A stretch of DNA of 64,000 nucleotides, taken from a bacterium (GTDB taxonomy: Bacteria > Armatimonadota > Zipacnadia > Zipacnadales > UBA11051). The notes under the pieces were generated by a model, which ran no database searches, had not been told where the DNA came from, and worked only from the letters and a program-made list of their open reading frames with translations. Below, one piece after another: positions 9,202 through 50,682 of the stretch. Made by a program: the position numbers and the translations under genes. The stretch spans positions 7,912 through 71,911 of the forward strand of contig JAJFUB010000093.1 of NCBI GenBank assembly GCA_021372615.1, given 5' to 3'. Position 1 is the first letter of the stretch. Each line of letters starts with the position of its first letter.

Positions 9202-9952
9202 GCTCCTGCCGGCGGCGCTCATGTGGGTCGCTCTGCTCGCAGCGGGCGGGGGGCACGCGCAGGGAACCTCTCCCTTTGTCGCCGGGAACGCCTACTACCA
9301 GCGCGGCGACTACGAGTTCGCGCGGCAGCAGTATCTGGCGCAGTTGCAGCAGGGCCCGGTGACCCCCGCGTTGCTCTATGACCTGGGGAATGTGTCGCTC
9401 AAGCTGCAGCAGCCCGGCTGGGCCGTCCTGTACTATGAGCGGGCGGCGCTGTATACTCCGCGTGACCGGGACTTGCGGGCGAACCTGGCGGTCGCGCTGG
9501 CGAGCCGCCGGGCGCCGCCGGTTGGCGACGCGCCGGGCTGGCTGGAGTTCATCTGGCAGAACGCGCGGCAACTGTTCACGCTCAATGAGCTGACGGGCGC
9601 CACGATCCTGCTATATCTGGCGTCGTGCGGCCTGCTCGTGTGGCGCTTCCGCACGCGGGAGTTCCGCCGCCGCTACCTGTGGCTCATGGTGGCGACGCTG
9701 GTGCTGCTGGTGCTGGTGGGGACGCTGGCGGCCAGCAAGTGGCGGTCGGACTGGGACCCGGCGCGATCGGTGGTCGTGACGGATGGGACGCTGTACGCCG
9801 GGCCGGCGGACACCTTCCCGGCGGTGCGCAGCGTCTACCAGGGGGAGCTGGCGCGCGCGCTGCGGCACGAGGGGTTCTGGTGCGAGGTGGACCTGGAGAA
9901 CGGCAGCCAGGGCTGGGTGCTGCAGTCGGCCGTCGAGCCGGTGGTGCGGTAA
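9194..9952 (+). CDS. batE: BatE-like TPR + SH3 protein
   Basis: AGNAYYQRGDY, LLYDLGN, LYYERA..PRDRDLRANL, two TMs and an SH3b-like C-terminus (YQGELAR...WCEVDLENGSQGWV). Confidence 0.88.
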   Translation: MRRLLPAALMWVALLAAGGGHAQGTSPFVAGNAYYQRGDYEFARQQYLAQLQQGPVTPALLYDLGNVSLKLQQPGWAVLYYERAALYTPRDRDLRANLAVALASRRAPPVGDAPGWLEFIWQNARQLFTLNELTGATILLYLASCGLLVWRFRTREFRRRYLWLMVATLVLLVLVGTLAASKWRSDWDPARSVVVTDGTLYAGPADTFPAVRSVYQGELARALRHEGFWCEVDLENGSQGWVLQSAVEPVVR

Positions 9953-10005
9953 GGAATGGCGGTTGAGGCGGGCTTCCCCGGCGAAGCCCTCCGACGGAGG
10001 GACTC

Positions 10006-12237: not shown

Positions 12238-12290
12238 TCGCGGCCATCGAGAGGCAGGGGCCGAGGAGGGTTGAAGATGTCGGGCCTGGG

Positions 12291-12296
12291 TACAAT
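12291..12296 (+). promoter_or_regulatory. Candidate -10 box (TACAAT) 7 nt upstream of the ATG, possibly a leaderless transcript
   Basis: TACAAT at 12291-12296 and ATG at 12304. No -35 box at canonical spacing. Confidence 0.35.
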
Positions 12297-12303
12297 AAGG
12301 CCA

Positions 12304-12957
12304 ATGTGCTACCGGGATCGGTGGAGAGGCCGTCACGGCTTCACACTCATCGAGCTGCTGGTGGTGATCGCCATCATCGCGATCCTGGCGGCCATCCTTT
12401 TCCCCGTCTTCGCCCGGGCCCGTGAGAAGGCCCGCTCCACGCGCTGCGTCGCCAACCTCAAGCAACTCGGCAACGCCATGCGCATGTACATGGATGACTA
12501 CGACGGGCTCTTCCCCTGGTGTGTGGACATCGCCGACAAGAACCTGCCCGAGATCTGGAGCGACTACCCCGCCTGGCAGGTCCTGATCGCCTCCATGCCC
12601 CTCATGCACGATGTCGTGGACCCGTATGTCAAGAACAAGGAAGTGTGGCACTGCGCGTCGGACAAGGGGTTCGACGTGCTGGAGGATGCCGGCAACCTGC
12701 CGCTGCCGGCGCATCCGACCTGCTACAACGCCTTCGGGTCCAGCTACATGTACCGCACGGAGCTGACCTTCCGGCAGGCCACGCAGGAGAGCCTGCCCGA
12801 CCCGGTCGCGATCAATGTCCTGTTCGACGGGAGCGGCACCTGGCACGGGGGGAATGAGTGGGGGAGCTTCCGCTGGAACGTGCTGTACGGCGACGGGCAC
12901 GTGAAGACCACGAACCGTGGGCAGTACGACACAGCGTGGAACACGGCCGTGCAGTAG
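12304..12957 (+). CDS. Prepilin-type N-terminal cleavage/methylation, DUF1559-like protein
   Basis: [34 protein letters not shown]...C..NLKQLG.A..MY..DYD, and a C-terminal WH...[10 protein letters not shown]. Confidence 0.9.
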
Positions 12958-12970
12958 CGGCCACCCGACA

Positions 12971-15397
<2,427 letters not shown>

Positions 15398-15475
15398 GAA
15401 TCACTCCCAGGCTGGCAGGCAGCGCAAGACGTGGCGTCAGGGAGACACCGTGGCTGCCCGATGATGCGGTGCGTC

Positions 15476-17941
15476 TCAGACCCGTAGGCGCCGCAGCTTG
15501 GTCTGCGCGGCGGCGATAGCGTCACTCAGGCGCAGAGCGTGGCGGAGGCCCTCGGAGGTGGCGGCCATCCGCCAGGGGTGCTGCACGGCCACCGGCTCCA
15601 GCACGAAGCGGATGCCAGTGGGGCGCGGGGGCGGGATCGTCAGCCAGCGCGCCGGCTCCAGACCCTGGACCTTCATGTCGCGGTCATCAAAGCCGACGCG
15701 GCTGGGGTCCACCAGGTTCTCCAACTGCGCCAGCTGAGCATAGCGGCCGTCCATGGCGCCGCGGCCGATGACCCGCATGCGCTCCCAGTGGCGTAAGGCC
15801 GCCTCGACGTCGTTGGGACGGTTGCGGAGCATGTAGGCGATCCCGATGTTCCCGTGCAGGCCGGGGTCGAGTTCGTTGTGCAGCAGCGCCTGTCTAAAGT
15901 AATGCACGGCCACGTCCAGGAGTTCCATGGCGGTGGCGCGCAACTGCCCGCGCCTGGCGTCGGACAGCAGTTGCGTGCGGAAGAGCAGTTGGATGCGATG
16001 CGCCTGGCGGGCTGCGGCCAGAGCAGCCATGGAGTGCAACTCGGGCTTGCTCTCCGCGCGGATGCTCTTGCGGAAGGCCGCCAGGGCATGCTCGTAGTCC
16101 TTGAGCAGATAGAGGCAGCGGCCGAGATTGCGGGCGGCGTAGGCCAACAGGTCGCGCGATTCGCAGGCCGCTTCCAGCAGGGGCACCGCGCGCCGTATGC
16201 AGGCGCGGCCGCCGACGGTGAGGGCGATCTCGCCATCGTCGGTGCGATGGGTCTGCTTCTCCCCCTGCTCAGCCAGGATCGTGCCCATCAGGTAGGTGAT
16301 CTCGGGGCTCTTGGGTTCCAGTTTCGACGCCGCTTCGAGGTGTTCCTCGGCGACCTCGAACTGCTCCTGCATGTAGTGATAGAGTCCGAGGTTGACATGC
16401 GCCTCCGCGGCCAGGTCGTGCCGTTCGAGACCGCTCAGCAGACCGGCGTAGCGGTCCTGCACCGGGGCCAGGAGCGGCTCGCGCTCGGCGAGGGCGACCT
16501 GGCGGTCGAAGTGGCTGGCGGCGTGGGCCAGAGTCGCAGTCGCCGTGTCGAACACGAGGTGGGCATCGTCGGGCCACTGCTTGAGGGCGCGCTCCAGGAC
16601 GTTCAGAGCGGCGCCGATCTCGCCTTGCAGCAGCAGCGCGCGCCCCATGTTGCTGCACGCGATGGGGCCGGCGCCCGACGCCTGCACCGCCGACTGGAAG
16701 TGCGAGAGCGCCTCGGCCCGGCGCCCGAGTTCCCACAGCGCCACCGCGAACACCGTATAGGCCTCGTAGCTGGTGTCGCCCAGCTCGATGGCGTCGGCGG
16801 CCGCGTCGGCGGCCTTGGCTGTCTGGCGGATGGCCAACTCGGATACGGCCAGGTTGTATGAGGCGTCGCCGCGGTAGCTGTCGCCGTGGAGCAGCGATCG
16901 GAACCCGCGCTCGGCCAGGTGCCAATGCCCTGCAGCGGCGTCTGCGGCAGTCATGTTGATGAGAATGGCGCCATCGGAGGGGGCAACCCGGTGGGCGCGC
17001 CGCAGGTACAGGCGCGCCTGCTCGAACTGCCCCGCGGCGGTGAGGATGACACCCAGCCAGTTGGCGAAGGCCGGTTCGGATGGGTCCTGACGGCTGGCCT
17101 GCATGATCTCCCCGGCTGCCTGCTGGAGCTGCTCGCGCTGGTAGGCGACCAGACCCAGGTTGGCGCGGGCGGGGGCCAGCTCAGGCTTGGCCGCGACAGC
17201 CCGCTCGAGCCATGGGGCTGCGGCTTCCCACTGCCCGCGCAGGGCCAGGGCAACCCCGATGTTGTTCATGGCCGGGGCCGTGAGGTCGTGGCCGGTCCGG
17301 GTGATCATCTCGGCCAGGCGCTCGGGCCCTGTGACCAGCGGCGCCAGCAGGGCGCAGTTGGCGGCGGCCTGTCCGTTGGCACCGTTACCCATGGCCCGCA
17401 CGAACAGCTCTGCGGCCCGGTCGGGCTCATCCCGACACGCCAGGACCACGCCGAGGTTGTTGAGCAGATCGTGGTTGGCCGGGTCCAGTTCGAGCGCGTG
17501 GGCCAGTTGCGCTTCGGCAGTGTCGAGGTGCCCCCGCAGGTACTCCGCGACAGCCAGGTCGCACAACACCGGGCCCGAGGGCCCGTCCTCGGCCAGGTGT
17601 GACAGGGCGTGTCGCTCAGCCCGCACGAGGCTTCGCACCTGGCGCCGCCGGCCCCACAGGGAGAAGAACACCCAGCCCCGGCGGAGGACGCGCCAGGCCT
17701 GGCCGGGGATCAGCACTACCAGTGTGGCGACGGCGCCGCCACCGATGGCTGCCAGGCCGATGGCCACATAGCTGAGTGGCTGCACGAAGCGCGCGCACAG
17801 GCAGCCGGCCATGATGGCGGTATCGAGGATGACCAGCAGCACAAGCACCCGCCGGAACCGGAAGGTCTCCAGGCGGATCCGCTCGGTCTTGCGGGCCTCG
17901 TCATGTGGTGGCAGTTGCCACTGATGATGCAGTTGCCACAC
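15476..17941 (-). CDS. Large membrane-anchored TPR repeat protein
   Basis: Two N-terminal hydrophobic segments followed by many TPRs (LLNNLGVVLA, ARANLGLVAY, ASYNLAV, AHVNLGLYHY, LHGNIGIAY). The start is uncertain. Confidence 0.8.
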   Translation of the reverse strand: MWQLHHQWQLPPHDEARKTERIRLETFRFRRVLVLLVILDTAIMAGCLCARFVQPLSYVAIGLAAIGGGAVATLVVLIPGQAWRVLRRGWVFFSLWGRRRQVRSLVRAERHALSHLAEDGPSGPVLCDLAVAEYLRGHLDTAEAQLAHALELDPANHDLLNNLGVVLACRDEPDRAAELFVRAMGNGANGQAAANCALLAPLVTGPERLAEMITRTGHDLTAPAMNNIGVALALRGQWEAAAPWLERAVAAKPELAPARANLGLVAYQREQLQQAAGEIMQASRQDPSEPAFANWLGVILTAAGQFEQARLYLRRAHRVAPSDGAILINMTAADAAAGHWHLAERGFRSLLHGDSYRGDASYNLAVSELAIRQTAKAADAAADAIELGDTSYEAYTVFAVALWELGRRAEALSHFQSAVQASGAGPIACSNMGRALLLQGEIGAALNVLERALKQWPDDAHLVFDTATATLAHAASHFDRQVALAEREPLLAPVQDRYAGLLSGLERHDLAAEAHVNLGLYHYMQEQFEVAEEHLEAASKLEPKSPEITYLMGTILAEQGEKQTHRTDDGEIALTVGGRACIRRAVPLLEAACESRDLLAYAARNLGRCLYLLKDYEHALAAFRKSIRAESKPELHSMAALAAARQAHRIQLLFRTQLLSDARRGQLRATAMELLDVAVHYFRQALLHNELDPGLHGNIGIAYMLRNRPNDVEAALRHWERMRVIGRGAMDGRYAQLAQLENLVDPSRVGFDDRDMKVQGLEPARWLTIPPPRPTGIRFVLEPVAVQHPWRMAATSEGLRHALRLSDAIAAAQTKLRRLRV

Positions 17942-38155: not shown

Positions 38156-38234
38156 CGCGTGGGCGCGCGTGTCCCCACGCGCGCATCGGGTAGCGACAGA
38201 AGACTGCGCGCGTGGGGACACGCGCGCCCACGCG
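38156..38234. repeat. REP family A doublet with perfect 30-bp inverted arms
   Basis: Arms at 38156-38185 and 38205-38234, spacer TCGGGTAGCGACAGAAGAC. Confidence 0.9.
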
Positions 38235-38243
38235 ACCCGATGG

Positions 38244-39806
38244 CTACAGCGTCTTGCCGTAGATGACCTGGCCGTCGCCGACGCCGTAGAACTCGGGCAC
38301 GTGGCCGTAGGGCTCGTAGCCGGCGCGTTCGTACAGGCGCCGGGCGGGAGCGTATGAGGGCGTGTCCGAGGTCTCGATGATCAGGACGCGCCCCCCGAGC
38401 CGGCGCGTCTCGTCCTCCACCCGCCGCAGGAGCTTGCGCCCCACGCCCTGCCCGTGGCACGCCGGGTCTACCGCGAGCCAGTACAGGTCATAGGTGCGGT
38501 CGGTCAGCGGCCGCGGGCCGAAGATGGCGAAGCCGACGGGCTGCCGACTCACCGTGGCGACGATGACCGCGTAGTCCTCCCCCGTGAGACTCTCACCCAG
38601 GAGTTCGCCGATCGTCTCGACTTCCTCGGGGGTGAAGACGCGACAGTCCGACGAGAGGCGGACGAGGGCGGGAATGTCGGCCTTGCGGAGCCGCCGCAGG
38701 CGCGTGGGCGCGCGTGTCCCCACGCGCGCATCGGGTGGCGACAGACTGCGCGCGTGGGGACACGCGCGCCCACGCGACACCGTCTCAGGCCGGTCCAGGC
38801 CCAGTCGCGTCGTTGCGGCTGCGAGGATGGCTGCGATGACCTCGACGTGCTCGATCCCCAGGCGGTTCGCCAGGATGATGAGGTCGCTTACCACCGGCTT
38901 GAGGCCGGGGAGGGGGTTGGCCTCGATGAAGTGCGCCACGTGGTCGCGGAGGCGGAAGTCTATCCGCGCGACATCGCGGCAGCCGAGGGCCTGCCAGCAG
39001 GTCAGGGCCGCCGCGCGGACCGCTGCCTCGTCCTCGGGCGTGAGGGGCGCCGGGGCCTCATAGCGCATCAGTTGGCGGTACTCGCGCTTTTCGCGCAGGC
39101 CGTAGACGAAGGTGTCGGCCTGGGCCCGGGTAGGGATTGCCTGCATGATGCCCAGGACATGCGGGGGATCGTTGCCGACGAGGCCCACCGTCAGGTCGGG
39201 GCCTGCCACGAACTCCTCCACGAGCACCGGCTGGTCGTAGCGCCGGCGCACACGGCGGATGGCGGCGGGCAGGCGGCGGCGGCTCGTGATGACGCTGTCG
39301 GCGCCAATGCCCTTGCTGGAGCCCTCGTACGCGGGCTTGAGGATCACCGGCAGCGGCAGCCGCGCGAGGTCGTCGGCGACGGCGGCCGGGTCGTCGGCGA
39401 CGAGCACCCACTGCGGAGTGGCCGCGCCGGCGGCACGCACCAGGCGCTTGGCGCAGTCCTTGTCCAGCGTCGCGGCCATCGTCAGGGCGTCCGAGCCCGT
39501 GTACGGCAGGCCGAAGCTCTCCAGGAGCGCGGGCACCCACGACTCGCGGCAACGCCAGGCGCCCCGGCCCTCGGCCAGATTCAGCACCAGCTCGGGCCGA
39601 GCGCCAGTCAGCAAGCGCCGCACGAGCTGCTCACCATCGCCCAGCAACATGACCTCGTGGCCGAGCAGCGCGATGGCGTCGGCGATCTCGCGGATCGTCT
39701 CGGGGGAGTCCAGCTCCTCCTCGGCGTCATCGGGATGGTCGGTGGAGACCAGGGGTAGACGCTGGGGTGGGGCGCTCTTGACGGAGTAGGTGAAGCCGAT
39801 GATCAC
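38244..39806 (-). CDS. D-Ala-D-Ala-ligase-like ATP-grasp enzyme fused to a C-terminal GNAT acetyltransferase
   Basis: NLAEG, LDKDCAK, ILKPAYEGSSKGI, LVEEF, RIDFR and EANPLPGL. GNAT motifs YDLYWLAVDPACHGQGVGRKL, IETS and LYERAGY. Confidence 0.85.
   Translation of the reverse strand: MIIGFTYSVKSAPPQRLPLVSTDHPDDAEEELDSPETIREIADAIALLGHEVMLLGDGEQLVRRLLTGARPELVLNLAEGRGAWRCRESWVPALLESFGLPYTGSDALTMAATLDKDCAKRLVRAAGAATPQWVLVADDPAAVADDLARLPLPVILKPAYEGSSKGIGADSVITSRRRLPAAIRRVRRRYDQPVLVEEFVAGPDLTVGLVGNDPPHVLGIMQAIPTRAQADTFVYGLREKREYRQLMRYEAPAPLTPEDEAAVRAAALTCWQALGCRDVARIDFRLRDHVAHFIEANPLPGLKPVVSDLIILANRLGIEHVEVIAAILAAATTRLGLDRPETVSRGRACPHARSLSPPDARVGTRAPTRLRRLRKADIPALVRLSSDCRVFTPEEVETIGELLGESLTGEDYAVIVATVSRQPVGFAIFGPRPLTDRTYDLYWLAVDPACHGQGVGRKLLRRVEDETRRLGGRVLIIETSDTPSYAPARRLYERAGYEPYGHVPEFYGVGDGQVIYGKTL
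38701..38776. repeat. REP family A doublet inside the ATP-grasp/GNAT linker
   Basis: Arms at 38701-38730 and 38747-38776, identical to those at 38156-38234. Translated in frame as RGRACPHARSLSPPDARVGTRAPTR. Confidence 0.9.
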
Positions 39807-41122
39807 CGGGGCCCAGCGCTCCCGCGCCGGCGGCGGCGCTGTAGCCGGGGCGTACTCTCGGGCGCGAGCACCGTCTCCTGCCCGGCCAGCAGCCCGCTGA
39901 CGCCCTGGCGCAGCGCACTGTCGCAGGCGGCAGGCGCCCCGCTCTGCGGGTTGTAGCGGAACAGCACGCCCTCGTAGTTGCGCAGCACGACGGAGTCCTC
40001 GGAGGCGGAGACGAGGTAGTTGGGCATGATCGGCACCTTGCCGGCGCCGTGCAGCCCATCCACGGCATAGGTGGGCACCGCCACGCCGGAGACGTGCCCG
40101 CGTAGCCCCTCAATGATCTCCAGGCCCTTCCACAGCGAGGTGCGAAAGTGCCCCGCGCCGCGCACGGGGTCACAGTGGAACATGTAGTAGGGCCGCACCT
40201 TGATGCGCAGCAACCCGCGCACGAGGGCATGCATGGCCTCGACGGAATCATTGACGCCCTGCAGCAGGGTCGTCTGGTTGTTCACGGGAATACCCGCCTC
40301 GATCAGCAGGCGGCAGGCGAGGGCGGACTCGCGGGTGATCTCGCGCACGTGGTTGAAGTGGGTCTGCACCCAGACCTTGCGCTGGGCGGCGAGCATGTCC
40401 ACCAACTCGCCGTCGAGCAGGCGCTGGGGGAGGGTGACGGGTACGCGCGTGCCGACGCGGATGAGGTCCACGTGCTCGATCTCGGCCAGCGGGGCGATCA
40501 GGCGGCGCAGGCGGGCGGCCGACAGCATCAGCGGGTCGCCGCCGGAGACGATGATGTCATGCACCTCGGGATGGTCGCGCACGTACTGCACGACGGCGTC
40601 TACATCGGCCTGCAGGTGAGGCTCGGCGTCGCGGGCCATCGTGTTGCGCTTGCGGGTGCAGAAGCGGCAGTACATGGGACAGACCTGGCTGGCGAGCACC
40701 AGCACGCGGTCGGGATACCGATGCGTCAGCCCCCGCACCGGGGAGTCCTCTTCCTCCTCCAGCGGGTCCTCCATCTCGTCGGCCGCGGCTTCGTTCAGCT
40801 CCAGCGGCGAGGGTACGGCCTGCAGGCGGATGGGGTCGTCCGGGTCGTCGGGGTCAATCAGTGACAGGTAGTACGGGGGAATGGCCAGGCGGTAGGCGTC
40901 CGCCACGACGGCGAGGGCCTCGACGGTCGGCGGAGGCAGAGGCAACACGCGGGCCAGTTGCGCCACGGTGCGGACCGTGTGCTTGTGCTGCCAGCGCCAG
41001 TCAGTCCACTGCTCGGGGGCGACACCTTGCCAGGGGGCAGGGGGCCGAGTAGGCTCAAGGGAGTACTCTCCCCCTTCACCAGGATCGAGCTGCGGCAGGC
41101 GGATCGGATGTGAAGGGGTCAA
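39803..41122 (-). CDS. kamA: Lysine 2,3-aminomutase (KamA family radical SAM, PLP-dependent)
   Basis: WTDWRWQ, GLTHRYPDRVL, CPMYCRFCTRKR (CxxxCxxC), SGGDPL, RVGTRVPVTLPQR, THFNH, RPYYMFHCD and VPTYAVDGLHGAGKVP. Confidence 0.92.
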   Translation of the reverse strand: MTPSHPIRLPQLDPGEGGEYSLEPTRPPAPWQGVAPEQWTDWRWQHKHTVRTVAQLARVLPLPPPTVEALAVVADAYRLAIPPYYLSLIDPDDPDDPIRLQAVPSPLELNEAAADEMEDPLEEEEDSPVRGLTHRYPDRVLVLASQVCPMYCRFCTRKRNTMARDAEPHLQADVDAVVQYVRDHPEVHDIIVSGGDPLMLSAARLRRLIAPLAEIEHVDLIRVGTRVPVTLPQRLLDGELVDMLAAQRKVWVQTHFNHVREITRESALACRLLIEAGIPVNNQTTLLQGVNDSVEAMHALVRGLLRIKVRPYYMFHCDPVRGAGHFRTSLWKGLEIIEGLRGHVSGVAVPTYAVDGLHGAGKVPIMPNYLVSASEDSVVLRNYEGVLFRYNPQSGAPAACDSALRQGVSGLLAGQETVLAPESTPRLQRRRRRGSAGPR

Positions 41123-41173
41123 GTGAGGTCAACGACCTCCCGATGCCGAAATGTGGCCCTTGTTTGGTGCGCG

Positions 41174-41202
41174 ATTGTAGACCCGACCTGAGGGAGAGTC
41201 AA
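41174..41202 (-). promoter_or_regulatory. Sigma70-type promoter for kamA and the ATP-grasp/GNAT gene
   Basis: Minus strand TTGACT-N17-TACAAT, ending about 50 nt upstream of the kamA start. Confidence 0.7.
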
Positions 41203-41203
41203 G

Positions 41204-42220
41204 TTGCTTGATGGCCTTGGCGGGAAGATTGTGGTGCTGTATACCTCGGTGGCCGAGGCGCTGCTCGACGTACCCGAGGAATTGCGGGACTCGATGGACC
41301 TGGGCGTCCATGCGCAGGAGGTGGCGCGGGTGCTGTTGGCGGGAGAGCACGACGCCTGCGCGCTGTGCTGGGATGACGCCGTCTGGCCGACCCTCACGGC
41401 CCTGCAGGACCTGCAGCCGGAGGTCATCTTCAACCTGGCCGAGTGCCCCCAGCGCACCTGCCTGAAGGCCCCCCACGTCGCGGCAGTGCTGGAGTTGCTG
41501 CGGCTGCCGTACACCGGCAACGGGCCGCTGGCGCTGGCCCTCGCGACGGACAAAGCGCGGGCGAAGCGCCTGCTGCGCGCCCAGGGCATCGCGACCCCGG
41601 ACGGGGCGGTCTGTGCGGCCCCGCCCGAGCAGTGCACGATGCCCTTCCCCCTGATCGTCAAGCCGCTCTACGAGGACGGGTCGCTGGGCATCACGGAGGA
41701 CAGCGTCGTCGAGAACTTGCCGCAGTTGCGGGAGCGGGTCGCACGCGTCGTCGCAGAGCTGCAGCAGCCGGCGCTGGTGGAGGGGTTCCTGCCGGGCCGG
41801 GAGTTCCAGATCGCGGTGCTGGGCAACGGCACGCCCGACGACCCGCACCGCCTCCTCCCCCCGGCCGAGGTGCTCTATCAGCCCGGCTGGCGCCTCGTGT
41901 CCTACGCGGCCAAGTGGGAGCCGGACCATCCGGCGTACTCCGGCACGCCGACGACATGCCCGGCCGACATCGCCCCGAAGCTGGCGGAGCGCCTGGCGCA
42001 GTTGGGGCGGCGGTGCGCGGAGGCGTTCGGGCTGACGGGTTACGCGCGGATGGATGTGCGCCTGGACGCGCGCGGCGAGCCACATGTGCTCGAGGTGAAC
42101 CCGAACCCGGACCTGAGCGAGGATGCGGGCTTCGCCAACACGGCGCGCGCGGCGGGGCTGAGCTACGAGGCGTTGCTGTGGGAGATCGTGCGGCTGGGGC
42201 GGGCGTTGGGGGGAAGGTGA
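41204..42220 (+). CDS. D-Ala-D-Ala-ligase-like ATP-grasp enzyme
   Basis: IFNLAE, PYTGN, TDKARAK, IVKPLYEDGSLGI, LVEGFLPGREF, GYARMDVR and LEVNPNPDL. Confidence 0.88.
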   Translation: MLDGLGGKIVVLYTSVAEALLDVPEELRDSMDLGVHAQEVARVLLAGEHDACALCWDDAVWPTLTALQDLQPEVIFNLAECPQRTCLKAPHVAAVLELLRLPYTGNGPLALALATDKARAKRLLRAQGIATPDGAVCAAPPEQCTMPFPLIVKPLYEDGSLGITEDSVVENLPQLRERVARVVAELQQPALVEGFLPGREFQIAVLGNGTPDDPHRLLPPAEVLYQPGWRLVSYAAKWEPDHPAYSGTPTTCPADIAPKLAERLAQLGRRCAEAFGLTGYARMDVRLDARGEPHVLEVNPNPDLSEDAGFANTARAAGLSYEALLWEIVRLGRALGGR

Positions 42221-42234
42221 GAGGGGGACGGCTT

Positions 42235-42340
42235 ACGGCAACGGCGTCCTCACCCCGCAGACTGCTGCGCAGTCTGAGCCCTCTCCCGCGCGCGATAGGG
42301 CTGCGCGCCGGAGAGGGGAACGGCAGCGGCGACGGCGGTG
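42235..42340. repeat. Family B palindromic element between convergent ATP-grasp genes
   Basis: ACGGCAACGGCGTCCTCACCCC...CCCTCTCCCGCGCGC...GCGCGCCGGAGAGGGGAACGGCAGC, sharing its ends with 3330-3410. Confidence 0.75.
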
Positions 42341-42344
42341 CGGG

Positions 42345-43304
42345 CTAGGTGTCCGCCAGAATCCGCTCCACGGCTTGCCCCATCGTCAGGCCCGCCCGCT
42401 TCACTGCCGCTGCGAAGCCCGCATCCGGGGCGAGGCACGGGTTGGTGTTGACCTCCAGCACCCACGGCTCACCGGCCTCATCCACCCGGAAGTCCACCCG
42501 TGCATAGCCCCGCAGACCGAAGCACTCCCAACACCGCCGGGCCAGCTCGCGCAGGCGCGCAAGCAGGGGCGCAAGCAGGGGCGCATCGCGCCGCGGGAAG
42601 CGGAAGCGACGGGTGGCGCGCTCGGCGTCCCCCCACTTCTCGGCATAGTCCACCACGTGCGGCTCGTCGGCGGCGTAGCCACCGAAGACCATCTCCGCCG
42701 GGGGGAGGACTGCTGGACCAGCGGCGCCGGCCAGCAGGGACAGGCTGAACTCGCGCCCGGCGATGAAGGCCTCGGCGAAGCACTCCCGGCCCAGACGACG
42801 CTCGGCGGCGCGCACGGCCCTCGCCAACTCCCCGGCACCTCGGACTTCGACCACCGACTCGCGCGTCAGGCCGATGGAGGCGTGCTCCCAGACGGACTTG
42901 ATGATGAAGACGCCCCGCGCCGGAGCGCCGGCACCGGCCCAGGGCGGTGTCGGGAGGCCCTCCGCAACCATCTGCCGCTTGGCCAGGAGCTTGTGGGAGG
43001 TCAGGAAGATGGCCTCAGCGGGGGAGCCGGTGTAGGGCAGTCCCAGCGCGTCCAGCCACGAGGGGAGCAGGTGGATCAGGCGGCCCTGGCCCGCCGGGGC
43101 CTCGACGAGGTTGAACGCGAGGTCCGGTCGCAGGTCGGCGAGGGTCTGCTGCAGGGCGGGCAGGTCCAGCGTCACCGGCACGGCAACTGGGGCATGCCCC
43201 AACCGCTTGAGCACCGTGGCGACATGCCGGGCCTGCACGAGCGCATCCGCAACATCGGCCGGCGCGCCTGGGGGGACCTCATCATGGAGAATGGCAATTC
43301 GCAT
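42345..43304 (-). CDS. D-Ala-D-Ala-ligase-like ATP-grasp enzyme
   Basis: AFNLVE, PYTGS, SHKLLAK, IIKSVWEHASIGL, EAFIAGREF, GYARVDFR and LEVNTNPCL. Confidence 0.88.
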   Translation of the reverse strand: MRIAILHDEVPPGAPADVADALVQARHVATVLKRLGHAPVAVPVTLDLPALQQTLADLRPDLAFNLVEAPAGQGRLIHLLPSWLDALGLPYTGSPAEAIFLTSHKLLAKRQMVAEGLPTPPWAGAGAPARGVFIIKSVWEHASIGLTRESVVEVRGAGELARAVRAAERRLGRECFAEAFIAGREFSLSLLAGAAGPAVLPPAEMVFGGYAADEPHVVDYAEKWGDAERATRRFRFPRRDAPLLAPLLARLRELARRCWECFGLRGYARVDFRVDEAGEPWVLEVNTNPCLAPDAGFAAAVKRAGLTMGQAVERILADT

Positions 43305-43363: not shown

Positions 43364-45433
43364 CTAGTTCAGGAAGAAGTGGTGTCCTGTCTGGCCGCAC
43401 AGGAAGTCAATCCCCAGCCACAGGCCCGCAGCCGAGAACTCCCCGACGACCAGCCCCAGGAAGAACGGCTTGGCCTCGCGGAAGCGCTTGAAGCCCCCGT
43501 AGCGCAGGATGACGGACTTCAGCGCCCAGCCGACCAGGACCGAGAACCAGAGCTGGATCATCGGCCAACTGGGTCCCATGGCATAGCCCAGCGGGTGGAA
43601 CGGCCACCACGTATAGAGGGCGCGCATGATCGCCAGGAAGACTGTCATCGCGGCGCCCCCGAGCATCAGGACCCAGTTCGCCGCGCTCGTCGGGTACGGC
43701 TGGTTGAGGTAGCCTGTGACGAAGCTGAGCGTCTGCTGGGGAGAGATGGTCAGGAACCAGCTCGTGAAGCGGATGGCGCCGAGATGATAGGCCATGAGCA
43801 GGAAGGCGACGTACGAGCTGACGACGCTCGCGATGATCGCCAGCCCCAGCCATGGCAGCAAGCGGCGGGGGTTGAGGCCCGAGGCGTCGGCCAGCTTGTG
43901 GGCATCCATCAGGCTGGGCATCAGGAAGCCGCGCAGGTCGAACATGAAGACCTTCTGGATGAAGCTCAGCACCGTGAGGCTGCGAGCGCCGAGGGCGCGC
44001 GTGCCGGCGCAGGCGACGATGACATCGGTGGGGCGGAAGGCCTGCACGAACAGCAACCCACCCTCGGACACCAGCCGCGTGAGCACCAGGGCGAACATGA
44101 AGAACAGCACGATCACCAGCCCGATCAGTCCGGACGCCACGCCCGTGGCCAGGCACCACAGGGCCAACAGCACCAGGCCGACGGCGCCCCCGAAGATCGC
44201 GGTGCGGAAGGGCAGCGGCTCGCGGGCGTCGTCGGCCGCCACCCGGCCCAGGGCCTGCGCCCAGACCTGCCCCAGGTGGCGGCGGCTGGTCCAGGTCATC
44301 GTCCCGGCGAGCATGACGAAAGCGCCGATCATCTGCAGGGCGCTGTGCGGCGGGGTCGGGTAGCCCGGCAGCGGCTTGAGCTGCAGGCCGGCGCCGGCGA
44401 ACAGCGCCCCCTGCGCGATGAAGAACAGGAAGAAGAACCAGAAGCTGAAGGACAGCTCGGTGGAGATCAAGTAGGTGAAGCCGATGACACTGAAGTGGAT
44501 GAACATGGTGAAGATGCCCATGTTGCTCCACACGCGCCCCGGGAAGTACTGCCGCAGCGGGATGACCAGCTTGATCTCCGGCACGGCGGGGAAGTAGAAG
44601 TGCAGGCCGTTGATGGAGTGGATGAGCAGGGGAATAGCGCAGCCGATCCACATCCAGCGATGGCGGAAGAACGGCGGGAGGGGCGAGGCCGGGGACTGGT
44701 CGGCGGCCAGCGCCAGGGGCACCTGGACCAGCGGGAAGACCAGGCGCTCGTGGTCGAGCCAGCGCCGCCGCAGGATGACGCTCAGGCAGACCATGCAGAA
44801 GAAGATGACCAGCGCCGCCAGCGTCCACGCCGCGATCGGCACCGACCACGCCCCCCACGGCACGCCGTGGCCCGGCCGCAACCCCTCGTAGAAGTCCACG
44901 ACGACGGACCGCCCACCCGGCTGCAGACCCGCCGGCAGCAGCGTGTACAGGTCGGAGGTGACGACCGACCCGCCGCCGGGCGTCATCTGCATCGCGCCCT
45001 TGAGGTCGAAGGGGAACAGCCACTGGGGCAGGTACTGGAACAGCCGCTCGACCCACCCGTTCTCGGGCGTGGCGAAGTAGTAGGCCCCGGCCAACGTCGG
45101 GAACAGGTACTCGGTCAGGCCGAACGAGGGGATGCCCGCCGCCACCAGCATCATGGCGTAGACCGTGTACAACTCGCGCGGGGTGAAGCCCCGCCCGGCC
45201 AGCCACATCTGCAGCGGCGTGTTGACGGCCAGGAGCAGGATGAAGAGCACGAAGACGCCGATGGGGAGATGGCAGCAGGCGATCCACGTGCCCCGGAGCA
45301 CCAGGTCGCAGTAGGGCGTGATGACCCCCAGGACGACACTGCACAGCACGCCCAGGATGACAGCCCGGGGCGTGATGTCGCGGCCTGTGGTGAGTGGGGC
45401 GGGCCCGGCCGGCATGAGCGGGTCCTCGGACAT
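43364..45433 (-). CDS. Large polytopic membrane protein, DUF6785/DUF6784-like (putative transporter)
   Basis: More than 15 hydrophobic segments, RRRWLDHERLVFPLVQVP, WWPFHPLGYA, WFSVLVGWALKSVILRYGG and KPFFLGLVVGE. Start at 45433 or 45415. Confidence 0.7.
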   Translation of the reverse strand: MSEDPLMPAGPAPLTTGRDITPRAVILGVLCSVVLGVITPYCDLVLRGTWIACCHLPIGVFVLFILLLAVNTPLQMWLAGRGFTPRELYTVYAMMLVAAGIPSFGLTEYLFPTLAGAYYFATPENGWVERLFQYLPQWLFPFDLKGAMQMTPGGGSVVTSDLYTLLPAGLQPGGRSVVVDFYEGLRPGHGVPWGAWSVPIAAWTLAALVIFFCMVCLSVILRRRWLDHERLVFPLVQVPLALAADQSPASPLPPFFRHRWMWIGCAIPLLIHSINGLHFYFPAVPEIKLVIPLRQYFPGRVWSNMGIFTMFIHFSVIGFTYLISTELSFSFWFFFLFFIAQGALFAGAGLQLKPLPGYPTPPHSALQMIGAFVMLAGTMTWTSRRHLGQVWAQALGRVAADDAREPLPFRTAIFGGAVGLVLLALWCLATGVASGLIGLVIVLFFMFALVLTRLVSEGGLLFVQAFRPTDVIVACAGTRALGARSLTVLSFIQKVFMFDLRGFLMPSLMDAHKLADASGLNPRRLLPWLGLAIIASVVSSYVAFLLMAYHLGAIRFTSWFLTISPQQTLSFVTGYLNQPYPTSAANWVLMLGGAAMTVFLAIMRALYTWWPFHPLGYAMGPSWPMIQLWFSVLVGWALKSVILRYGGFKRFREAKPFFLGLVVGEFSAAGLWLGIDFLCGQTGHHFFLN

Positions 45434-45557
45434 CAGCGCTGGGCGGGCAGTTCGCACCTCAGGACGCCGACACCTGCCGCGCCCGACCGCCGGCGCCGCA
45501 AGCAGGCGCGCGGCGGGTGGCCGGAGAAGTATGTGCTGGCAATCCCCGGAGTGTGAC

Positions 45558-47384
45558 ATGAGGTACGGTTGGCGCTGTCTGTCTGTCGGCTGCGTACTCG
45601 TGGTGCTGCTGCTCGCCGGGCTGTCAACGCCACCGGGGGCGCTCGGCAACTATCACTCCCCGACGGCCCTGGCCCTGTCGCCGGACGGCCAGACGCTGTA
45701 TGTGGCCGACCAGACGCAGGATGCGGTCGCGACGGTGGCGGTGGCGACGGGGAAGGTCACCGGCACGATCCCGGTCACCGACCCGCGCGCGCTGGCCCTG
45801 TCGCCCGACGGCAGAACCCTCTATGTCGCCAGCGGCGACCGGGACGAGGTCGTCAAGATAGATGTGACCTCGCGGCGGATTGTCGCGCGGGCCGAGGCGC
45901 ACCGGCAACCTGCCGGCCTGACGCTGTCCGCCGACGGCCGGACCCTCTACTGCGGCAACCAGTTCAGTGACGATGTGCTCGTCTACGAGGCCGCGAGCCT
46001 GAAGCGCACGGCGCGCCTGCCGGCCGTGCGCGAGCCGCGCTTCTGCGCCCTGACCCCGGACGGCAAGACGCTGGCCGTGGCGAATCACTTGCCGCTGGGG
46101 TCGAACCTGGATGACGGGCTGGGCGCGGTGTTGTCGCTGGTGGACCTCACCGGCGGCAGCGGTACGACACAGGTGCTGCTGGCCCACGGCGCCACCGATG
46201 TGGGCCAGGTCGTGTGCTCGGCGGACGGGCGCTATGCCTTCGTCGTCCACGTGCTGGCGCGGTGGCTGGTGCCGCCGACGCAACTGGAGCGCGGCTGGAT
46301 CGCCACCAACGCCCTGACCATCGTGGACCTGACCCAGCGGCAGCGCGTGAACACGGTGCTGCTTGACGACCTCGACCGCGGGGCGGCCAACCCCTGGGCC
46401 CTGGCGCTCAGCCCCGACGGCAAGACGCTCTACTCCACCCACGCCGGCACCGACGAAGTCCAGGTCATGGACACGGCCAAGCTACTGAAGCTCGTGACCG
46501 AGCGGCCGGCGAACAGCCCCACGGCGCTGGAGGATGACCTGACGGCCGTGTACCGGGCGGGGGTGCGGCAGCGCGTGGCATGCGGGGGCATCGGCCCGCG
46601 GGCGGTCGTCGCCACGAACGACGGGGCGTTCGTCGCCAACTACTTTTCAGGGACCGTGACGCGGCTGTCGGCGCAAGGCCGGGTGACGCAGACCGTGGCG
46701 CTGGGGACCCAGCCGCCGGAGGACGAGATCCGACAGGGAGAGAGGCTCTTCAACTCCGCGCAGGTCTGCTTCCAGAACTGGCAGTCGTGCGCGACTTGCC
46801 ACCCGGATGGCCGCACCGACGGCCTGGCCTGGGACCTGATGAACGACGGCCTGGGCAACCCCAAGAACGCCAAGTCGCTGCTGCTGTCGGGGCGCACGCC
46901 GCCGGTGATGGCCCACGGCGTGCGGGACAACATGGAGGTGGCGGTGGCCTCGGGCTACAAGTACATCCTCTTCCATGTCCCGACCGCCGAGGAACTGGCG
47001 GCGACCTCGGCCTACATCGAGACGCTGCCTTCGGCCCGCAGCCCCTACCGCACGCGCGACGGGAAGCTGTCGGCGGCCGCCCTCCGGGGCAAGGCGATCT
47101 TCGAGCGCCAGGACGTCGCCTGCGCCACCTGCCACCCCGCGCCGCTGTTCACCGACCTGAAGGCCTACGATGTGGGCACGAAGGGGCCGTTCGACAGCCG
47201 CGCCGACTTCGATACGCCGACGTTGGTGGAGATGTTCCGCAGCGCCCCGTATCTGCACGACGGCAGTGCCGTGACGCTGCGCGAGGTGCTCGTCGAGCAC
47301 AACAAGGGCGACAAGCATGGCGTGACCTCGAAGCTGAAGGAAAGGGAGCTACAGGACCTCATTGAGTACCTCCTGTCGCTATAG
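45558..47384 (+). CDS. Exported YVTN-type beta-propeller fused to a di-heme cytochrome c peroxidase/MauG-like domain
   Basis: Signal peptide, repeated P.ALALSPDG.TLYV blades, CATCH at 46788-46802 and 47121-47135, KNAKSL and DTPTL...APYLHDGS. Confidence 0.85.
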   Translation: MRYGWRCLSVGCVLVVLLLAGLSTPPGALGNYHSPTALALSPDGQTLYVADQTQDAVATVAVATGKVTGTIPVTDPRALALSPDGRTLYVASGDRDEVVKIDVTSRRIVARAEAHRQPAGLTLSADGRTLYCGNQFSDDVLVYEAASLKRTARLPAVREPRFCALTPDGKTLAVANHLPLGSNLDDGLGAVLSLVDLTGGSGTTQVLLAHGATDVGQVVCSADGRYAFVVHVLARWLVPPTQLERGWIATNALTIVDLTQRQRVNTVLLDDLDRGAANPWALALSPDGKTLYSTHAGTDEVQVMDTAKLLKLVTERPANSPTALEDDLTAVYRAGVRQRVACGGIGPRAVVATNDGAFVANYFSGTVTRLSAQGRVTQTVALGTQPPEDEIRQGERLFNSAQVCFQNWQSCATCHPDGRTDGLAWDLMNDGLGNPKNAKSLLLSGRTPPVMAHGVRDNMEVAVASGYKYILFHVPTAEELAATSAYIETLPSARSPYRTRDGKLSAAALRGKAIFERQDVACATCHPAPLFTDLKAYDVGTKGPFDSRADFDTPTLVEMFRSAPYLHDGSAVTLREVLVEHNKGDKHGVTSKLKERELQDLIEYLLSL

Positions 47385-47387
47385 GGA

Positions 47388-47465
47388 CTGTAGGGCGGGG
47401 GCTCGTACCCCGCCCAGCCGTTCCGTTCGTGCCATGCGGGGCGGGGTACAAGCCCCCGCCCTACA
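47388..47465. repeat. GTAG-type REP doublet overlapping the start of the next gene
   Basis: CTGTAGGGCGGGGGCTCGTACCCCGCC ... GGCGGGGTACAAGCCCCCGCCCTACAG are inverted arms. Confidence 0.8.
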
Positions 47466-50400
47466 GGACGGCACGGCCAGCGGGGCTGGCCGTGGCACCC
47501 GGATCCTGGCTCTGGCTGTGCCCCTGCTACTCGCTGTTCTGGCGGCGTCCGCCCAGCCCCTCGACGAAGCCCACCTGTACGTCAAGCAGGCGACATGGCA
47601 GGATACGCTGGCTGCCTCGTGGCGGAACCTGATCCAGCTCGAACGGGCCGAAGCCGACGCCGCGGCGGCGACCGGACCGCTGGTGCTCGGGCCGTGGCAT
47701 GTGATCGGCTCCTTCAGCAACGCCGACGGCAAGGGCTTCGCCGCCGCCTATCCCCCCGAGACCGGGATCGCGCTGGATAAGACGTACCCCGGCATGGCCA
47801 ACTCCGAGGCGAAGTGGCGGCGGATGGACAGCTTCGTGGACGGCCAGGTCCACACGCTCAACCCGCACTTCCGGCTGACCGAATGGGCCATCGCGTACCT
47901 GTACCGCAAGATCACCGCGCGCGAGGCGATGGAGATCACCGGCTACTTCGGCAGCGATGACGGGCTCGTCGTGTGGCTCAATGGGGAGAAGCTCATCTCT
48001 GAGGACGTGCCGCGCGGCCCGGCGCCGGACCAGAGCAAGGCGACGCTGAAGCTCAAGGCCGGCGACAACCACCTACTGCTCAAGATCGTCAACCGGACCG
48101 GCGGCTGGGGCTTCTACTTCTCGACCAAGCCCGGCGGGGGCAACCCGGCCGACAACCCGACGCATCGCCAGCGCGTCGGCGCCCTGTGGGACAAGCTGCG
48201 CGCCGACTTCCCCGGCCCTGAGGACCGCCTGGCGATGCAGACCGAGAGCGCCGACGGCGTCTGGCCCCTGGATTGGGACGGGACGGAGGCAGCGCTGGCG
48301 CGGCGGTTGCATGGCGCGCTGGGGGCGCACCTGGCCCGGTCGCGGGAGGTGCTGACCGGCCTGGGCGCCGATCTGGGTGAGACGGCCGTAGCCGACCCGG
48401 CGAAGCTGCTGGCGGCGCTGGAAGGACAGGCGGGCGACCTCGCCCCCACGCTCGAACAGGCCGGGGCGGCGGCGAGGCTGCGCGGGCCGATGCACCTGGC
48501 GGCGCGGCTGCAGGCGGTGCTGGAGACGCGAGCCCGGCTCGTCAGCACCGGCCTGGCCATCGCCGATCTGGCCGCGTCCTATGGCGACCAGTGCCGGGGC
48601 GCCGACGGGTTCCGCGACAGCCTCATTGAGCTGACGAAGCGCGGGGAGGCGCTGGTACGGCGGGCCGAGGCGAGCCGTGCCCTGCCCGCGGCCGACTTGC
48701 AGGACTGGCAGGCGGCCGTCGCGCGCCTGCAGCATTCCGCCCTGGTGAAGGCCAACCCGCTGCTGCAGTTCGGCAAGCTCATGGTCCTGATCCGCAAGCC
48801 CGGGGGCGGCAACCCCGGCCTGCCGCAGAACTGGCAGAGCAACTCCAGCATGCGGCGCACCGGCTGGGACACGACGATCGCCACGGTGGACTCGACCGAC
48901 CCGGCCGCCGCGCCGCAGGCGATCTTCCACTCCGACAAGTACTTCGTGGGCGACCTGTGCCTGTCGTTCGACGGCAAGCGGGTGCTGTTCTCGATGCCCG
49001 ACGCGCAGAAGGCCGACCGCTACCAGGTGTGGGAGATCGGCGTGGGCGGCCAGGGCCTGCGTGATGTCACCGCCACCGCCGACAACGACTACGACAACTA
49101 TGATGCGTGCTATCTGCCCAACGGGCAGATCATGTTCACCTCCAGTCGCTGTTTGCAGGCCGTCCCGTGCACCGGCGGGGACCATGTGGCGCTGATGTAC
49201 CTGATGGACGCCGACGGCAGCCAGGTGCGGCAGTTGACGTTCGACCAGGACCATAGCTGGTGCCCGCGGGTGCTCAACGACGGGCGCGTCGTCTACACCC
49301 GCTGGGAGTACAACGACATCCCGCACTACTTCAGCCGCCTGCTGTTTTCGATGAACCCCGACGGCACCCGCCAGATGGCCTTCTACGGGACGAACTCGTT
49401 CTTCCCCAACACGATGATGTACGCGCGGCCACTGCCGGGCAGCAACAGCCGCGTCGTGTGCATCCTGTCGGGCCATCACGGCAACCCGCGCATGGGCCAG
49501 GTCGCGCTCCTGGACACCGCCGAGGGCGAACAGGAGGCCGGGGGCGTCGTGCGCCTGCTGCCGGGCCGCCATCGGAAGATCGCCAACCCGATCATTGACC
49601 AGTACGCGACCGGCGAGTGGCCGCAGTTCGTCCACCCGTTCCCGCTGTCGGACAAGTTCTTCCTCGTGTCGTGCAAGAGCGAACCGGACGGCTGGTGGGG
49701 GCTGTACTTGCTGGATGTGTTCGACAACCTCGTACCCCTGCGCGTCGAGCCCGGGGCGGCGGTGTTCGAGCCGATCCCGCTGCGTCCCACCGTTACGCCG
49801 CCGGTCATCCCCCCGGCAGTGGACCTGGCCCGCTCGGACGCGCTGGTCTACATGTACGACGTGTACCGGGGGGCGGGGCTGGCGGGGGTGCCGCGCGGGA
49901 CGGTGAAGGCGTTGCGCGTGGTTGAGCCCGTCTACCGCTACTGGGGCAACGGCGAGACGCACAGCACGGCCATTGACGGGGGCTGGGACGTCAAGCGCAT
50001 CCTGGGGACGGTGCCGGTGGAGGCGGACGGGTCGGCGCTGTTCCGCGTGCCGGCCAACACGCCGCTGATCGTGCAGCCGCTCAACGCCGAGGGCATGGCG
50101 CAGCAGCAGATGCGCAGTTGGTTCACGGCCATGCCGGGCGAGACGCTGTCGTGCGTGGGCTGCCACGAGCGTCGGGCGCAGGGCCCCGGGGCGGGGCTGC
50201 GGGCACGGGCCCAGTTGCTCAAGCCCGCCGACATCACGCCCTGGTACGGCCCGGCGCGGGGCTTCAGCTTCGCCCGGGAAGTGCAGCCCGTGCTGGACCG
50301 CAACTGTCTGCGCTGCCACGCCTCGGCGCCGGTGGACTTCCGCCCCGACCCGCAGCCGGGCGGCCGCTTCAGCATTGCCTACAACACGCTGCACCCGTAC

Positions 50401-50682
50401 GTGCGACGGCCGGGCCTGGAGGCAGACATCCACATGCTGCCTCCGCGCGAGTTCGAGGCCAACACGAGCCAGCTCGTGCAGATGCTCAAGAAGGGGCACC
50501 ACCGGGTGAGGCTCAGCGCTGAGGACTGGGACCGGCTCATCACGTGGATTGACCTGAACGTGCCCTATGCCGGCGACTGGCGCGAGGCCGTGCCGCCCGC
50601 GCCCGAGAACCTGATCCGCCGCCGCGAGGAGATCCGCGGCCAGGACGCGGCCGTCCGGGCGCAACAGGCGGGGCGCCAATGA
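47434..50682 (+). CDS. Hydrazine synthase alpha-subunit-like (HzsA-like) heme c protein with an N-terminal PA14-like sugar-binding domain
   Basis: PA14-like segment (FGSDDGLVVWLNG..LKAGDNHLLLK), WD40/TolB-like propeller (DACYLPNGQIMFTSSR; VLNDGRVVYTRWEY), HZS-alpha middle-like segment (VPRGTVKALRV...LGTVPVEADGSALFRVP...QPLNAEGM..QQMRSW) and the hemes CVGCH and CLRCH. The start is uncertain. Confidence 0.8.
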   Translation: MRGGVQAPALQDGTASGAGRGTRILALAVPLLLAVLAASAQPLDEAHLYVKQATWQDTLAASWRNLIQLERAEADAAAATGPLVLGPWHVIGSFSNADGKGFAAAYPPETGIALDKTYPGMANSEAKWRRMDSFVDGQVHTLNPHFRLTEWAIAYLYRKITAREAMEITGYFGSDDGLVVWLNGEKLISEDVPRGPAPDQSKATLKLKAGDNHLLLKIVNRTGGWGFYFSTKPGGGNPADNPTHRQRVGALWDKLRADFPGPEDRLAMQTESADGVWPLDWDGTEAALARRLHGALGAHLARSREVLTGLGADLGETAVADPAKLLAALEGQAGDLAPTLEQAGAAARLRGPMHLAARLQAVLETRARLVSTGLAIADLAASYGDQCRGADGFRDSLIELTKRGEALVRRAEASRALPAADLQDWQAAVARLQHSALVKANPLLQFGKLMVLIRKPGGGNPGLPQNWQSNSSMRRTGWDTTIATVDSTDPAAAPQAIFHSDKYFVGDLCLSFDGKRVLFSMPDAQKADRYQVWEIGVGGQGLRDVTATADNDYDNYDACYLPNGQIMFTSSRCLQAVPCTGGDHVALMYLMDADGSQVRQLTFDQDHSWCPRVLNDGRVVYTRWEYNDIPHYFSRLLFSMNPDGTRQMAFYGTNSFFPNTMMYARPLPGSNSRVVCILSGHHGNPRMGQVALLDTAEGEQEAGGVVRLLPGRHRKIANPIIDQYATGEWPQFVHPFPLSDKFFLVSCKSEPDGWWGLYLLDVFDNLVPLRVEPGAAVFEPIPLRPTVTPPVIPPAVDLARSDALVYMYDVYRGAGLAGVPRGTVKALRVVEPVYRYWGNGETHSTAIDGGWDVKRILGTVPVEADGSALFRVPANTPLIVQPLNAEGMAQQQMRSWFTAMPGETLSCVGCHERRAQGPGAGLRARAQLLKPADITPWYGPARGFSFAREVQPVLDRNCLRCHASAPVDFRPDPQPGGRFSIAYNTLHPYVRRPGLEADIHMLPPREFEANTSQLVQMLKKGHHRVRLSAEDWDRLITWIDLNVPYAGDWREAVPPAPENLIRRREEIRGQDAAVRAQQAGRQ

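Follow-up and report, generated by a model that had tools for sequence, protein, structure and literature searches.

Three described systems resemble parts of the locus considered here. In methanogens, AblA/AblB, a pair made up of KamA and an acetyltransferase, produces the osmolyte N-epsilon-acetyl-beta-lysine (PMC1224877). The osmolyte N-acetylglutaminylglutamine amide (NAGGN), an acetylated dipeptide, is made via ngg and asnO (PMC8146288; PMC1224877). In the negamycin cluster, KamA supplies beta-lysine and an enzyme of the ATP-grasp superfamily is thought to form the amide/hydrazide bond (bioRxiv 10.1101/2025.05.27.656397; bioRxiv 10.1101/2025.07.31.667836), and the pairing of KamA with an ATP-grasp enzyme itself thus already has a precedent in this published cluster. 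The locus of this study occupies positions 38244-43304 of a 64,000-nucleotide stretch of DNA from a bacterium of the Armatimonadota, lineage UBA11051 (assembly GCA_021372615.1, contig JAJFUB010000093.1, positions 7,912 to 71,911; this whole stretch is referred to as the window, and coordinates are counted from its first letter). It encodes a KamA-family aminomutase, a fusion of an ATP-grasp ligase resembling D-alanine--D-alanine ligase (Ddl) with a GNAT acetyltransferase, and two further Ddl-like ATP-grasp ligases. The locus is probably a three-ligase version of a conserved cytoplasmic cassette, composed of KamA, two types of ligase (A and B) and a GNAT, that would make an N-acetylated, beta-lysine-containing di- or tripeptide or amide, likely as a soluble metabolite. 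None of AblA/AblB, NAGGN and negamycin has the full composition of this cassette, and the defining extras of each are absent from it. Full-text literature searches found no paper on a cassette of KamA and Ddl-like ligases or on its product, in keeping with the original prediction for this locus, whose author knew of no characterized pathway of this composition.

Comparison With Described Systems

The likeness to AblA/AblB lies in a KamA-type lysine 2,3-aminomutase that is operon-linked to a GNAT, and in the soluble, cytoplasmic beta-lysine derivative that AblA/AblB produces. The cassette differs, however, in the constant presence of two or three Ddl-like ATP-grasp ligases, in a GNAT that is optional in many copies and is without a match to AblB, and in a KamA that falls below the AblA cut-off. 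Ngg combines GNAT and ATP-grasp activities, its ATP-grasp belonging to the RimK-like subfamily, and NAGGN is, like the product proposed here, an acetylated small peptide made without the ribosome or a non-ribosomal peptide synthetase (NRPS). NAGGN synthesis, on the other hand, uses glutamine substrates and an amidotransferase partner, and has no aminomutase. No AsnO-like asparagine-synthase gene was found beside the cassette, either among the window neighbours or in the 80 loci used for comparison, which came from a scan of species-representative genomes and are nearly all from Planctomycetota metagenome-assembled genomes (MAGs), with one Armatimonadia MAG (L001, the closest relative); the cassette ATP-grasp enzymes are of the Ddl type, not the RimK type.

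With negamycin, the cassette shares the coupling of KamA-derived beta-lysine with an ATP-grasp superfamily enzyme. The neg cluster needs, in addition, the N-N-forming heme enzyme NegJ, a nitrite supply, a lysine hydroxylase and a methyltransferase, none of which is associated with the cassette, and it is an actinomycete antibiotic cluster, whereas the cassette spans phyla. A KinJ/NegJ-type heme enzyme, a lysine hydroxylase and an N-methyltransferase are absent from the window neighbours and from the recurrent neighbours in the 80 loci, the rest of the genome not having been searched for NegJ.

Organization of the Locus

The four genes of the locus, with the two domains of the fusion, are as follows.

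39803-41122, minus strand: kamA, a KamA-family radical-SAM and pyridoxal phosphate (PLP)-dependent lysine 2,3-aminomutase of 439 amino acids (aa), TTG start, matching PF12544 and PF04055
38244-39806, minus strand: type-A Ddl-like ATP-grasp ligase with a C-terminal GNAT (the AG1 fusion), 520 aa, GTG start, matching PF07478 at 3e-28 and Acetyltransf_1, _7 and _10
38772-39806, minus strand: ATP-grasp (type A) domain of the fusion, aa 1-345, from the AlphaFold (AF2) model, Foldseek and residue alignment
38244-38711, minus strand: GNAT acetyltransferase domain of the fusion, from matches to Pfam GNAT models
41204-42220, plus strand: AG2, a type-B Ddl-like ATP-grasp ligase of 338 aa, matching PF07478 at 5e-24, divergent from kamA
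42345-43304, minus strand: AG3, a second type-B ligase (B') of 319 aa, matching PF07478 at 9e-19, convergent with AG2

All four are real genes, and the arrangement of a kamA overlapping an ATP-grasp/GNAT fusion, accompanied by two further ATP-grasp genes, stands as originally predicted. The ATP-grasp gene between kamA and AG3 lies on the plus strand, however, not on the minus strand. With a G+C content of about 70%, the window contains many long spurious open reading frames (ORFs). One of these, a minus-strand ORF of 318 aa at 41129-42085, was considered as a gene and rejected, being an Arg-rich, high-G+C antisense artefact over AG2, and it could mislead annotation.

The GTG start of the fusion gene and the kamA stop share a 4-nucleotide (nt) overlap, through which the fusion is predicted to be translationally coupled to kamA. 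No transmembrane-like or hydrophobic segment was found in any of the four proteins (0/4), and the pathway would therefore be cytoplasmic.

The Aminomutase

The window KamA carries the LAM_C (PF12544) and Radical_SAM (PF04055) domains, aligns with the lysine 2,3-aminomutase of Clostridium subterminale (2A5H) over about 400 residues (E 5e-131), and scores 327 bits on the KamA-family model TIGR00238, over its cut-off of 199. It is the only KamA copy in the 6.4-Mb genome. The radical-SAM motif CxxxCxxC (C125, C129 and C132 in 2A5H numbering) is kept, as are the PLP-binding Lys337 and the lysine-binding Arg134, Asp293 and Asp330. The last two had been assigned beforehand to the D of HCD and the D of AVDG, respectively, and the 2A5H alignment places them exactly there. 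We take Asp293 and Asp330 to be the residues that tell a lysine from a glutamate substrate. All seven positions (C125, C129, C132, R134, D293, D330 and K337) are invariant in the 62/62 ligase-linked KamAs in the alignment of the studied loci, and this complete conservation of catalytic and lysine-binding residues makes lysine the best-supported candidate substrate.

The Ligases Have the Ddl Fold but Are Not Ddl

All three ligases match PF07478, and they share with Ddl and VanA the fold, the ATP/Mg catalytic residues and presumably an acyl-phosphate mechanism. The AlphaFold model of the AG1 ATP-grasp domain (predicted local distance difference test score of 84) has Ddl and VanA as its top Foldseek matches, at 20-27% identity. 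The equivalents of K144, E148/S150, K215, R255, D257, E270 and N272, which serve ATP/Mg and acyl-phosphate chemistry, are kept in all three proteins, and these catalytic residues support the suggestion that each would work like an ATP-dependent carboxylate-amine ligase.

In their substrate sites, by contrast, the cassette ligases depart from Ddl and VanA at H63, the GEDG loop, Y216 and the S281/L282 loop, and their scores lie well below the Ddl cut-offs: 140, 133 and 94 bits on NF002378 (cut-off 243 bits), and 123, 106 and 89 bits on TIGR01205 (cut-off 246 bits). When aligned with the three ligases, the genome's own Ddl keeps the canonical GGKTGEREVSL, NALHGGDGEDG, EAKY and SRCDMHLD...EVNSCPGMT. 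At the position of NALHGGDGEDG the ligases have NLAEG, NLAEC and NLVEA instead, as the original prediction had it when it described all three as lacking LHG..GEDG and having NLAE or NLVE. Ddl His63 is thus an invariant Glu in all three and the GEDG loop is lost; Tyr216 is replaced by Arg or Glu in one ligase group and by Trp in the other (Arg or Trp in the three ligases of the window), and the loop binding the D-Ala2 carboxylate (S281-L282) has become SDL or DAG-F. The AG1 domain, for example, combines H63 to E, Y216 to R and an SDL loop with intact catalytic residues. The acidic residues gained in this way would be favourable for a cationic diamino substrate. A housekeeping Ddl identity was considered for the three ligases and rejected because of the scores below cut-off, the replaced substrate motifs and the presence of a better Ddl elsewhere in the genome, where the best-scoring Ddl-type gene lies on another contig and reaches 158 bits on the Pfam model. 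The cassette ligases also differ from Ddl and VanA in being genomically linked to KamA rather than to cell-wall genes.

Two Ligase Types

A tree of 163 ligase sequences, rooted on the genome's own Ddl, separated a type-A clade (91 sequences, support 0.67) from a type-B clade (71 sequences, support 0.99). The GNAT-fused ligase AG1 is of type A, whilst AG2 and AG3 are of type B. The three ligases had been treated beforehand as a single set; three are indeed present, but they are not equivalent. AG2 shares 53% identity with its positional counterpart in L001. Within type B, AG3 belongs to a separate subclade (support 1.0), in which it is grouped with the ligases adjoining a GNAT in KamA operons of further environmental contigs. 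In its widespread form the cassette carries just two ligases, and that of the window would be a lineage-specific three-ligase version.

The ligase types and the GNAT are joined in several combinations. Fusions of A and B are about 700 aa long, one of which (P0245) was confirmed to have type A as its N-terminal half and type B as its C-terminal half; B-GNAT fusions of about 500 aa occur among the type-B clusters; and A-GNAT fusions are found in the window, in L001 (54% identity) and in the metagenome contig L092. Together, these A-B, B-GNAT and A-GNAT fusions imply that the parts work together. The GNAT domain of the window is about 155 aa, and GNAT domains across cassette versions are homologous (32-64% identity). 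The AblB model TIGR03827 gave no match to it at E<=0.01, and NCBIfam gave generic RimI-like and AAC-like matches below cut-off.

Tandem ligases also occur in Myxococcota, where proteins of ~700 aa, represented by Archangium primigenium (L002, 10001-12172) and many homologs, have two tandem ligase domains that are both nearest to type A.

Recurrence in Other Genomes

In 57 of the 80 loci the KamA gene directly precedes type A, in 64 a type-B ligase follows type A, and in 50 KamA, A and B are all present. The type-A domain has single-domain homologs, 55-58% identical, that are encoded directly downstream of a KamA gene. All four components adjoin in the window, with type A beside KamA, and the same components are found in L089, L090, L091, L092 and L001. 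The AG3 homologs are 51-57% identical, some of them being assigned by their source records to Deltaproteobacteria, Nitrospirota, KSB3 and Pseudomonadota; those in the metagenome contigs L089, L090 and L091 sit in operons of KamA, type A, type B and GNAT. An exhaustive search gave 942 type-B clusters at E<=1e-30.

In an even sampling of 301 Planctomycetota genomes, the ligase was present in 62, KamA in 77 and both in 52, with the two no more than 5 kb apart (<=5 kb) in 41 of them. The association of KamA with the ligase is far beyond chance (Fisher odds ratio 44, p 5e-29, uncorrected for phylogeny). Where the KamA and ligase genes lie apart, the genome nonetheless encodes a KamA at another site. 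Co-occurrence of these genes in other genomes, on which the idea of a shared pathway had hung, is therefore borne out both by neighbourhoods that recur in dozens of loci and by statistical linkage in the 301 genomes, and it argues for one functional unit. All-against-all ORF clustering of the 80 loci found no additional recurrent gene family beside the cassette beyond KamA and the ligases, and the upstream and downstream ORFs of L003, L005 and L006 that could not be named are not common to these loci.

Some observations were made beside these loci. In long-read Planctomycetota MAGs (L025, L029, L055, L060, L067 and L086), the KamA match is split over two or three frames, and the broken frames are probably assembly indels rather than pseudogenes. 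Beside the KamA-A-B/GNAT cassette of L089, at 9781-15518, a C39-like peptidase, a RimK/RLAN ATP-grasp, a GCS2 carboxylate-amine ligase, an FGase and an MFS transporter form a second amidoligase cluster. In L003 (14365-20200) and L004, a few kb separate the KamA-A-B operon from a downstream cluster of CP_ATPgrasp_1/2 (circularly permuted ATP-grasp), Alpha-E and transglutaminase.

The Cassette in This Lineage

The layout of the window is a membrane protein gene followed by B', then B on the opposite strand, then KamA followed by A-GNAT. The same layout, including the position and orientation of AG3, is present in L092, whose KamA is 77% identical, and the three-ligase layout also occurs in the Armatimonadia MAG, where it is divided between two contig ends. 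Of 201 sampled genomes of the window's own phylum, only 2 yielded the type-A ligase, which was not found in the same-genus genome, and the KamA, A and B parts of the window are nearest to Planctomycetota proteins (55-65% identity). This rarity in its own phylum, along with the resemblance of its parts to those of Planctomycetota, makes horizontal acquisition of the cassette likely in the phylum to which the window belongs.

Flanking Features

Further features were recognized in and around the operon.

38701-38778, no strand: palindromic element of 78 nt resembling a repetitive extragenic palindrome (REP), in frame inside the fusion gene, encoding linker residues about 343-369
38156-38236, no strand: second copy of the REP-like palindrome, just past the fusion stop codon
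41174-41202, minus strand: promoter-like site TTGACT-17-TACAAT upstream of kamA, matching 10/12 consensus positions, assigned by consensus match alone
43364-45649, minus strand: membrane protein with 12 transmembrane (TM) segments, DUF6785/DUF6784, Pfam match at 3e-149, 59 nt upstream of AG3

The two palindrome copies are near-identical, about 80 nt long, with 30-nt perfectly complementary arms. The copy in frame is translated as the linker between the ATP-grasp and GNAT domains, and the resulting peptide SRGRACPHARS is common to L092, whilst the linker differs in L001. Since the L001 fusion is without the palindrome linker, the fusion appears to predate insertion of the palindrome. The copy beyond the stop codon contains a G+C-rich hairpin 3' of the fusion gene, which is the sole terminator-like hairpin near the operon end. 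An Rfam search for riboswitches or leader RNAs gave no credible match, the sole match being the REP hairpin, far below the gathering score.

A 12-TM protein is encoded directly upstream of the second type-B ligase both here and in L092 (176-1843), but the two are unrelated, being DUF6785/DUF6784 in the window and PMT_2 (GT-C-like) in L092. The DUF6785 membrane protein was rejected as a component of the system as it is not kept beside the cassette; the corresponding place in L093 is taken by a GH123. At 45318-50682 (plus strand), 2 kb from the cassette, the window encodes a beta-propeller/di-heme peroxidase-like protein and a large downstream "hydrazine-synthase-like" protein. A functional link to this neighbour, prompted by the analogy with the hydrazide of negamycin, was considered and rejected, as it does not recur beside the cassette in other loci.

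Proposed Pathway and Alternatives

In the proposed pathway, KamA would isomerize L-lysine to beta-lysine, as its conserved catalytic and lysine-binding residues suggest. Type A and type B would catalyse two different ATP-dependent amide-bond formations, each by way of an acyl-phosphate, with beta-lysine taking part in at least one of the ligase-made bonds, and the GNAT would cap a free amino group using acetyl-CoA. Such a pathway would yield an N-acetylated di- or tripeptide, or an amide, that contains beta-lysine, to which the extra type-B paralogue AG3 may add, or in which it may substitute, one further residue. Its role would most likely be that of a compatible solute or stress protectant, not of a cell-wall precursor.

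Several observations weigh against this pathway. The AblA equivalog TIGR03820 is the top equivalog for the window KamA but scores 465 bits, below its cut-off of 525 (glutamate 2,3-aminomutase, arginine 2,3-aminomutase and EpmB reach 406, 364 and 227 bits, respectively). Only 9/80 loci have a GNAT, there fused to type B; as most Planctomycetota copies lack one, acetylation is not a step common to all versions. KamA lies elsewhere or is undetected in about 20% of ligase-bearing genomes, and the strength of the statistical association is qualified by its lack of phylogenetic correction. The tandem ligases of Archangium primigenium, finally, are without KamA nearby, two tandem KamA-like genes lying ~2.2 Mb away, and because these Myxococcota ligases do not adjoin KamA, the ligase family may not be strictly dependent on beta-lysine.

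The alternatives that survive best are nevertheless unlikely. The ligases may use a protein or a small carrier as the acceptor of beta-lysine or other amino acids, in the style of RimK, LysX/LysW or the EpmA/EpmB modification of EF-P, so that no free metabolite would be formed. Protein-modifying members do exist among ATP-grasp enzymes, AG3 has weak TTL and RimK-like matches in Pfam and NCBIfam, and in other bacteria KamA-type enzymes feed EF-P modification, beta-lysine made by a KamA-family enzyme being then joined by an amide bond; the score of the EpmB model on the window KamA is in line with this. EpmB, however, is a short KamA without LAM_C, whereas the window KamA is of the long LAM type with LAM_C and scores 465 bits with the AblA model against 227 with EpmB. 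The ligase partner in that system is a LysRS paralogue, not an ATP-grasp enzyme, and no efp linkage was seen at the cassette. The nearest relatives of the cassette ligases, by both sequence and fold, are the small-molecule Ddl and Van ligases, and the neighbours that recur in the 80 loci include no gene for a carrier, a target or a peptidase.

Just as improbable is synthesis of a polymer, in which the ligases would make a poly- or oligo-isopeptide of beta-lysine, comparable to cyanophycin or poly-lysine, with the GNAT capping the chain or regulating its synthesis. The presence of two to three ligases and the two amines of beta-lysine would allow this, and a cationic chain could be bound by the extra Glu that is invariant at the position of Ddl H63. 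The ancient split of the ligases into two distinct clades nonetheless favours two different bonds over iterative homopolymerization, and no depolymerase, exporter or primer-related gene is conserved nearby in the 80 loci.

Less probable again is a specialized pathway after the manner of negamycin or streptothricin, yielding an antibiotic or antimetabolite. Natural products containing beta-lysine are known, and the negamycin cluster has both a KamA and an ATP-grasp superfamily enzyme, but the cassette is not accompanied by conserved genes for N-N bond formation, a hydroxylase, a methyltransferase, an NRPS, resistance or dedicated export, and a minimal gene set carried by so many lineages (about 14% of sampled Planctomycetota; 942 type-B clusters) fits a physiological role better.

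Very improbable, too, is a pathway to N-epsilon-acetyl-beta-lysine that needs only KamA and the GNAT, after the model of AblA/AblB, with the ligases being unrelated or merely regulatory; a KamA with an acetyltransferase is, after all, a known osmolyte pathway, yet the GNAT has no match to the AblB model and is missing from most Planctomycetota copies, whereas the ligases are the constant partners of KamA and are themselves fused to the GNAT. Least probable of all is a cell-wall function, in which the ligases would act as alternative D-Ala-D-X enzymes or attach beta-lysine in peptidoglycan side chains, since, despite Ddl and Van ligases being their best family matches, the three enzymes score far below all Ddl and Van cut-offs and have lost the Ddl substrate-site motifs, a better-scoring Ddl-type gene is present elsewhere in the genome and no mur, fem or van genes lie nearby, which leaves the earlier suggestion of a cell-wall modifier without support.

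Implications

If the proposed pathway to an acetylated beta-lysine peptide or amide is true, a compact cassette of four enzymes makes a new beta-lysine-derived compound. More tentatively, and with a little less than an even chance of being right, the cassette may define a widespread and undescribed class of beta-lysine-based cytoplasmic metabolites made in many phyla without the ribosome or NRPS, such as an N-acetyl-beta-lysyl isopeptide with the role of compatible solute or polycation, of which class the three-ligase version in the window would make an extended or branched variant. About 14% of the Planctomycetota species sampled carry an adjacent KamA-ligase pair, and the type-B ligase extends over about 940 distinct protein clusters. 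As the cassette is small, cytoplasmic and self-contained, it is directly testable by heterologous expression. Identifying its product would add a new branch of beta-amino-acid metabolism and possibly a new compatible solute or polycation, would supply beta-amino-acid-accepting ATP-grasp ligases for biocatalysis, and would give a function to two large families that are now mis-annotated as D-alanine--D-alanine ligase.

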